This document shows, in pieces, positions 54,601 through 54,779 of a stretch of 64,000 nt of DNA; the first letter of the stretch is position 1, and the number at the start of each line of letters is the position of its first letter. A model generated the notes under the pieces. It did no database searches and was not told where the DNA came from. It saw only the letters and a program-made list of their open reading frames with translations. Both the position numbers and the translations under genes were made by a program. The stretch is from a bacterium (GTDB taxonomy: Bacteria; Bdellovibrionota_C; UBA2361; RFPC01), in the NCBI GenBank assembly GCA_030428205.1, contig JAUIBK010000021.1:2523-66522 (forward strand), read 5' to 3'.

Positions 54601-54779
54601 TAGCCCGCATTATTCATGAGTAATCTGCTGCGGAACTATATCTTGCGAAAATCCTTCGCGAATTTGGAAATTTCGACTTCGGTGTGTCTCGACACACTGT
54701 CAGCCGAAATTTCCAAATTCGCTCGTCTTTTCACAACCTATAGCTCCTCGCGACGAAGACTCATGAATAATGCGGGCTA
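54601..54779. mobile_element. MITE-like element of 179 bp with perfect 21-bp terminal inverted repeats (TAGCCCGCATTATTCATGAGT) and an internal nested palindrome
   Basis: Outer TIRs lie at 54601-54621 and 54759-54779. The inner inverted repeat is GCGAATTTGGAAATTTCG/CGAAATTTCCAAATTCGC around a central GTGTGTCTCGACACAC. The region is non-coding. Confidence 0.5.

Follow-up and report, generated by a model that had tools for sequence, protein, structure and literature searches.

What is the nested inverted repeat that stands just upstream of a GspE/PilB-type ATPase gene in a Bdellovibrionota-like bacterium: a resident control site of the operon, or a piece of mobile DNA? The original prediction, made from the letters of the window (the whole stretch of 64,000 nucleotides that we analysed), had allowed for both, proposing either a miniature inverted-repeat transposable element (MITE) or a complex operator in the promoter region of the ATPase operon. 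We conclude that the feature is very probably a 173-bp non-autonomous MITE of the IS1380 family, presumably moved in trans: it has the ends and the target of an IS1380-family clade, yet it carries no gene, which is what defines it as a MITE.

The element and its ends

The 21-mer TAGCCCGCATTATTCATGAGT at 54601-54621 has its exact reverse complement at 54759-54779, as predicted. When up to three mismatches are allowed these are the only two copies in the window, and 100 dinucleotide-preserving shuffles gave 0 matches; the inverted repeats are real and beyond chance. While the exact inversion stands, the length of 21 bp given to the terminal repeat does not, because the TAG of the 21-mer is flank and forms part of a 4-bp target duplication. 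The element proper therefore covers 173 bp (54604-54776) and its terminal repeats are 18 bp long and perfect (18/18). The inner inverted repeat was also borne out, with two arms of 21 nt that are 95% complementary, and so was the central palindrome GTGTGTCTCGACACAC, located at 54682-54697 (Table 1). Between the outer and inner repeats lie the two motifs of the lineage described below: the 3'-arm motif appears as GCAGCAG on the minus strand (CTGCTGC on the plus strand, 54626-54632), and the 5'-arm motif, written in plus-strand letters, is TCGCGACGA (54748-54756), with residues G23, T24, C27, G28 and A29 invariant in 15 diverse members.

Table 1. Coordinates of the element, its parts and its neighbours in the window.
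Feature	Position	Strand	Remark
Left target-site duplication, TTAG	54600..54603		Family-wide flank pattern
Left terminal inverted repeat, CCCGCATTATTCATGAGT	54604..54621	+	Core conserved in the family is the first 16 nt
Arm with the family's 3'-arm motif	54622..54657	-	Pairs imperfectly with 54723-54758
Inner stem, 54658-54678 / 54702-54722	54658..54722	-	Closes the apical hairpin GTGTGTC-TCGA-CACAC (palindrome)
Arm with the family's 5'-arm motif	54723..54758	-	TCGTCGCGA on the minus strand
Right terminal inverted repeat, plus-strand ACTCATGAATAATGCGGG	54759..54776	-	Exact reverse complement of the left repeat
Right target-site duplication, CTAG	54777..54780		3/4 identical to the left copy, TTAG
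GspE/PilB-type ATPase gene	54814..56244	+	Neighbour, outside the element; 33 bp downstream of the right duplication
Sigma-70-like promoter match, ATGAGA-16-TACAAT	54544..54571	+	Consensus match only; about 30 bp upstream of the insertion

A 54-aa open reading frame opens with an ATG within the left repeat, closes on the TAG that belongs to the right duplication, and has no match in Pfam. Frames of this kind read through 28 of 58 family members on one strand and 13 of 58 on the other, a frequency explicable by high GC content and by the relatedness of the members. The element is non-coding, with no gene of its own. Searched through the 64-kb window, an nhmmer profile of the ends revealed no second or degenerate copy, and tblastn with six IS1380 transposase queries revealed no IS1380 transposase; the lack of a transposase in this window limits only the claim of current mobility. 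The window pair 6167-6398 was considered as a second copy and rejected, its 6 mismatches per arm being what chance gives.

Target site and duplication

The original prediction had looked to a TA dinucleotide on both sides as the possible duplication; we find instead that the duplication is 4 bp long and of the form YTAG. Of 87 ends, 66 have a C and 17 a T before the TAG; in a larger set (among the loci listed), one of these two bases stands there in 254 of 271. The site pattern is therefore YTAG-CCCGC...GCGGG-CTAR. Perfect 4-bp direct repeats flank 22 of 37 complete elements; 20 of these are CTAG, one is TTAG/TTAG (L024) and one CTAA/CTAA (L052), and the last two pairs fit a 4-bp duplication and not a 2-bp TA. 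They also dispose, together with the IS1380 matches presented below, of the 2-bp (IS630-like) model that the flank logo had suggested. In the window itself the flanking tetranucleotides differ by one base, being TTAG on the left and CTAG on the right; the same TTAG/CTAG pair is carried by a full-length insertion sequence, L104.

Some insertions share more than the target. Nine of the 271 ends, from several phyla, abut the same sequence GGACAGGCTCC followed by TAG (L005, L006, L019, L025, L048, L121, L125, L126 and L170, with L126 beside a full-length insertion sequence). At L025 and L126 this GGACAGGCTCC flank belongs to a small palindrome, GAGCCTGTCGCG...CGCGACAGGCTC, of which it forms the 3' half. 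The shared flank suggests preferred insertion at the foot of another repeat.

Absence from the closest relative

The comparison of the orthologous site in relatives, proposed as a check along with the original prediction, found the element precisely absent from the closest one. This is GCA_020434525.1 (contig L053, from a MAG labelled Bdellovibrionales), whose GspE/PilB-type ATPase is 93% identical to that of the window; in the next homologues, labelled Bdellovibrionota/Oligoflexia, identity does not exceed 69%. The gene pair is the same on contig L053, which can be aligned with the window along both flanks of the element but lacks exactly the 173 bp of 54604-54776. Its site reads ...CTTAGGTAGCAGAATTTTC, and in the flank alignment ...ACCGATCTCTTAGGTAGCAGAATTTTCTATCACTAAAGA of L053 faces ...ACCGATCTATCTCCTTAG, the 173 bp and CTAGCAGAATTTTCTATCACTAAAGA of the window. 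The stretch TTAGGTAG of L053 can be aligned in two ways, being taken either for one target or for the two duplicates that stayed in place (scores 143 and 151). It may thus be either an empty site or a footprint retaining both duplicates, and the difference either a gain in the lineage of the window or a loss in the relative. Whether gained or lost, the element is an indel with exact ends. A single copy conserved in relatives had been named beforehand as the sign of a regulatory site, and the opposite was found: the element is absent from L053 and belongs to a multi-copy family. The odd intergenic structure upstream of the ATPase gene is thereby explained, and it marks a recent gain or loss of DNA just upstream of a type II secretion / type IV pilus ATPase gene.

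A family of elements with the same ends

We scanned one genome per bacterial and archaeal species, a species-representative set that excludes the genome of the window, and found the exact 21-mer at 51 loci in about nine phyla (Nitrospirota, Pseudomonadota, Planctomycetota, Acidobacteriota, Desulfobacterota, Myxococcota, Balneolota and others). These loci include Kuenenia (Planctomycetota), Gammaproteobacteria and Bradymonadales (Myxococcota), and about 19 of the 51 lie within one gammaproteobacterial MAG, JAHJQV01. In metagenomes, a 19-mer of the end occurs at 120 or more loci. Most loci hold a second, slightly diverged copy of the repeat, inverted and 100-270 bp away, and the end sequence mostly belongs to elements of 150-225 bp. 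The spacing of paired ends is bimodal, with 72 of 126 pairs at 175-224 bp and 8 at 1.4-1.7 kb (among the loci listed). The same ends and architecture are found beside unrelated genes in about nine phyla. The window element is ordinary in kind, but its family extends over many bacterial phyla. A blastn search of plasmids with the end sequence gave only sub-significant matches, and we found no paper containing that sequence. Two remnants were also seen, L023 4852-4883 (32 bp) and L043 1329-1378 (50 bp), which consist of approximately two terminal repeats flanked by TAG/CTAG.

IS1380 transposons with the same ends

The first hint of a parent transposon came from L009 (Fodinibius), where a decayed transposase, with matches to Pfam DDE_Tnp_1_4 and to the NCBIfam IS1380 model, is followed 214 bp downstream by a solo exact end. 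Taken alone this link to IS1380 is weak; it was later confirmed by full-length transposases bounded by the same ends. Homologues of the L009 transposase fragment include the annotated plasmid elements ISPa33 and ISMaq4 (IS1380-like), whose boundaries read CTAA-CCCGGATTTCTCATGA...TCATGAGAAATCCGGG-CTAA for the first-listed and CTAG-CCCGGATTTCTCATGA...CTATGAGAAATCCGGG-CTAG for the second-listed. Their ends are identical to the window repeat at 13 of 16 positions, and the 4-bp duplications are CTAG for ISMaq4 and CTAA for ISPa33. Closer homologues of the L009 protein, from Bacteroidota, belong to 1.6-kb elements that end in CCCGAATTATTCA / CCCGCATTATTCATAG and have TTAA duplications.

The metagenomes give a closer match. 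At nine loci (tblastn, among the loci listed) the exact repeat adjoins a full-length transposase of about 430-460 aa, in elements of 1.4-1.7 kb that share 16-19-bp ends and are flanked by CTAG. Both ends were seen in seven of the nine (L084, L176, L156, L169, L104, L076 and L168); L084, for instance, reads CTAG-CCCGCATTATTCATGAGTG...TCATGAATAATCCGGG-CTAG over 1661 bp, and the full-length elements L176, L156, L169 and L104 measure 1621, 1675, 1706 and 1695 bp. The 16-nt core of the window repeat is identical to the ends of L084, L169, L176 and L156. All transposases found between matching ends are of the IS1380 family, with NCBIfam IS1380 scores of 395.7 bits for L084 and 384.2 bits for L156 against a cut-off of 180. 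When the interior of the window element was compared with the subterminal regions of these seven full-length elements, no similarity was detected (local alignments at null level, in a comparison of low power), so the element is not a simple internal-deletion derivative of those seven copies.

Two IS1380 elements of Bacteroidota were delimited on the side, L061 495-2108 and L062 877-2480 (Ichthyobacterium seriolicida AP014564). Their TTAA duplications and CCC...GGG termini are the target and the end bases of eukaryotic piggyBac, and in both the transposase is split in two open reading frames, of 142 and 274 aa in one and 175 and 257 aa in the other. At L012 385-1703 (a Luteitalea MAG) a transposase gene of the IS110 family is located some 600 bp inward of an IS1380-type end, and this may be one insertion sequence inserted in another.

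Folding and a conserved hairpin lineage

According to the original prediction, the stretch between the outer and inner repeats was not self-complementary and the feature was not simply one long hairpin. Neither statement holds. The stretch is imperfectly self-complementary, with 16 of 20 positions matching in its best part (left GGAACTATATCTTGCGAAAA against the reverse complement of the right arm, GGAGCTATAGGTTGTGAAAA), and the whole element is predicted to fold as a single imperfect hairpin of 72 pairs, with energies of -93.7 kcal/mol for the plus strand (z -12.1) and -111.8 kcal/mol for the minus strand (z -14.3). Rfam 15 returned no match for the element at the gathering score, and with permissive settings only generic microRNA-hairpin matches, which scored 25.8 bits where the gathering score is 74. 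An intrinsic terminator scan did not call the element either: no U-tract directly follows the stem, and TTTT starts 8 nt later.

The MITE lineage of the window has two distinguishable arms that are conserved across phyla. Its motifs are non-complementary, CGTCGCGA in the 5' arm, just inside the repeat (on the minus strand in the window), and GCAGYAG in the 3' arm, and an apical GCGTACT..AGTACGT hairpin keeps its position across the lineage with compensatory changes. In 15 diverse members the consensus hairpin comprises 43 pairs, 26 of them with compensatory changes. Paired cells amount to 92.8%, against 78.6% in shuffles and 28-45% in slid controls, and 0 of 500 shuffles reach any of five measures. 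The breadth of the family, its strict YTAG target and this conserved hairpin lineage are of modest interest.

Neighbouring genes and local effect

The product of the adjacent gene matches Pfam T2SSE with 440.6 bits and falls below the equivalog cut-offs of both the PilB and the GspE models of NCBIfam. The promoter-like match of Table 1 was the only one found, against 0.5 expected, and its -10 box is partly conserved in L053 as TACAAC. The same scan detected neither an outward promoter nor a canonical terminator inside the element. If the match were the promoter of the ATPase gene, the MITE would be transcribed as part of the 5' untranslated region of that gene's mRNA, and its likeliest effect would be to add a hairpin of about 175 nt to that leader; the leader of the operon may thus have been altered by the event.

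Around the locus, a minus-strand 118-aa open reading frame (54226-54582), which the original prediction had taken to be spurious, overlaps a plus-strand one of 316 aa (53553-54503), and neither matches Pfam or NCBIfam. In the relative with a 69% identical ATPase (L054), the gene upstream of the ATPase gene is unrelated. A Logan contig with an identical ATPase gene (L001, ERR3428546) stops 8 nt inside the right repeat of the element (positions 1-29 of the contig), a break that would be expected if the repeat were multi-copy in the sample or if the hairpin broke the assembly graph. Repeats of this kind break short-read assemblies, as at L001, and could be mistaken for regulatory RNAs.

Other inverted repeats in the window

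A second family of hairpin repeats is present at 16476-16563, 44410-44497 and 56730-56817 of the window and at about 2084-2171 of L053. Its members have perfect arms of 27-29 nt, CCAAWTTCTTGAACTTTTTTCTCCGTGGC, a loop of about 30 nt that differs in each copy, and conserved flanks, ttccgtta ... cWgttcRac. One copy follows a response-regulator gene near the ATPase gene, and is in the same place in L053. These repeats could be terminator-like or REP-like. Further perfect or near-perfect hairpins, with arms of 29-37 nt, lie at 3640-3719, 4914-4995, 41128-41202 and 46772-46832, several of them built from short repeats of the CTTGCT type or the ACGCGAGGT type. The genome seems unusually rich in long inverted repeats.

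Discussion

MITEs of DDE transposons are mobilised by a transposase made elsewhere, which binds the terminal repeats and inserts the element with duplication of the target. We propose that the element of the window follows this scheme. Its terminal repeats, CCCGCATTATTCATGA... over 16-18 bp, would presumably be the binding and cleavage site of an IS1380-family transposase, since they are the same sequence as the ends of full-length IS1380-family insertion sequences. A transposase encoded outside the window would have inserted the element at a YTAG site that lies 33 bp ahead of the start codon of gspE/pilB, with duplication of this 4-bp target. Four independent lines support the MITE alternative of the original prediction: absence from the site of the relative, a multi-copy family, 4-bp duplications, and IS1380 elements with the same ends and target. 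That the element is mobilised in trans is inferred from the scheme for DDE transposons, and an effect on the ATPase gene, if there is one, is likewise an inference. IS1380 elements, prokaryotic relatives of piggyBac, thereby gain a MITE family that is widespread and strict in its YTAG target. We did not find such an IS1380-derived family described in the literature that could be searched, though it may already have an entry in ISfinder.

Two other accounts of the feature have to be weighed against an IS1380 MITE. It could be a resident regulatory site of the gspE/pilB operon, a nested operator or a terminator/attenuator, and not mobile DNA. Its intergenic position so close to the start codon, a nested dyad symmetry that is typical of operators and a very stable plus-strand hairpin speak for this, but the nearest relative has the same flanks and gene order without the element, the same ends and architecture recur beside unrelated genes in about nine phyla, and the terminator variant receives no call in the scan. 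The operator that the original prediction had offered as an alternative is contradicted by these observations, and we consider a resident site extremely unlikely. It could also be a MITE of another transposase family with TA or CTAG sites, IS630/Tc1-mariner or IS5. The flanks are compatible with a TA inside YTAR, as an IS630-type element would have, and the IS5-derived MITEPsy1 duplicates CTAG or YTAA (PMC3189936). However, the TTAG/TTAG and CTAA/CTAA pairs do not fit a 2-bp duplication, the MITEPsy1 repeat GGAAGGTCTGAAAAAGCC is unrelated, and between ends of this kind we found IS1380 transposases but no gene of IS630 or IS5; another parent family is thus very unlikely.

The conserved hairpin raises a different possibility, that besides being mobile it is a functional single-stranded nucleic acid, either an RNA or a folded DNA strand used in transposition, with its shape and the asymmetric motifs of its internal loop under selection; locally, it could be a 5' leader that modulates expression of the ATPase operon. 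The extent of pairing and of compensatory change across 15 diverse members, and the conservation of non-complementary motifs across phyla, speak for such a function. In addition, in nearly all elements that the motif allows to be oriented, the more stable fold is that of the strand on which the CGTCGCGA arm comes first (two exceptions; -106.8 vs -91.3 kcal/mol in the window). Transitions of the wobble type also outnumber those of the C.A type overall (155 vs 81), but this excess comes mainly from the family of one MAG and a few others, the Nitrospira lineages being neutral and the window giving 3 vs 1. Orientation relative to flanking open reading frames is random (upstream, 23 on the same and 23 on the opposite strand; downstream, 25 and 23), which argues against an orientation-dependent role in host transcripts. 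L024, L029, L052, L020 and L025 share the ends but have unrelated and less structured interiors, so the hairpin is not needed for membership of the family. A function in host transcripts is further weakened by the interior having no detectable similarity to IS subterminal regions (a test of low power), and a functional hairpin by the lack of any matching Rfam family. Finally, a fold-back origin or conversion from arm to arm can keep the arms of a palindromic MITE paired without selection, and we therefore regard a functional structure as unlikely, though not negligible. There is thus a small chance that the lineage is a strand-asymmetric folded module, RNA or folded ssDNA, kept across at least eight phyla, and not a mere decayed remnant. 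Such a module, itself a tentative proposal that we think improbable, would be built of a terminal stem, the internal loop CGUCGCGA / GCAGYAG, a middle stem that covaries and, at the tip, a hairpin of the form GCGUACU...AGUACGU. If this were true, it might assist a piggyBac-like transposase in pairing the ends, or be a regulatory RNA carried by the transposon. With its conserved, covarying hairpin, the lineage offers a test case for a possible part of secondary structure in mobilisation in trans.

Short intergenic hairpin repeats with terminal inverted repeats and TA-containing targets are known from other bacteria, such as the Correia elements of Neisseria and the RUP elements of Streptococcus pneumoniae, which often sit in 5' leaders and can alter expression. 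They are genus-restricted and have 2-bp TA duplications, and the proposed parent of RUP is an IS630-type element. The window element differs from them in its ends, in its 4-bp duplication and in the breadth of its family. In its working the element would resemble the classic bacterial MITEs. As regards the target, the closest documented analogue is MITEPsy1 of Pseudomonas syringae, an IS5-derived MITE whose transposition has been shown (PMC3189936). Like the present element, it is a small bacterial MITE (about 100 bp) with terminal repeats and a 4-bp CTAG/YTAA duplication, presumably mobilised in trans (PMC3189936); unlike it, it descends from IS5/ISPsy2, has unrelated repeats and is confined to a few pseudomonads, whereas the present family covers many phyla.

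Among IS1380 sequences proper, ISMaq4 and ISPa33 resemble the window element in a repeat that starts with CCC and follows CCCG-N-ATT-NN-TCATGA and in their 4-bp CTAG/CTAA duplication, and the metagenomic members have a repeat that is identical at 16 of 16 positions. The window element departs from all of these in its length of 173 bp, in having no transposase gene and in an interior that is not recognisably that of an insertion sequence. The best-known member of the IS1380 family is ISEcp1. It is characterised by outward promoters and one-ended mobilisation (PMC9330008), neither of which was found for the window element. At a greater distance, IS1380 transposases have been taken as an outgroup, from prokaryotes, for piggyBac (PMC10813416). 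The present family targets CTAG/YTAG, where piggyBac has TTAA; regarding seamless excision, the site in L053 could even be a footprint. The likeness lies in the CCC...GGG termini and in a 4-bp target of palindromic type, which in the Bacteroidota elements L061 and L062 is TTAA as well. These termini, together with the 4-bp TTAA/CTAG targets, fit the relationship between IS1380 and piggyBac.
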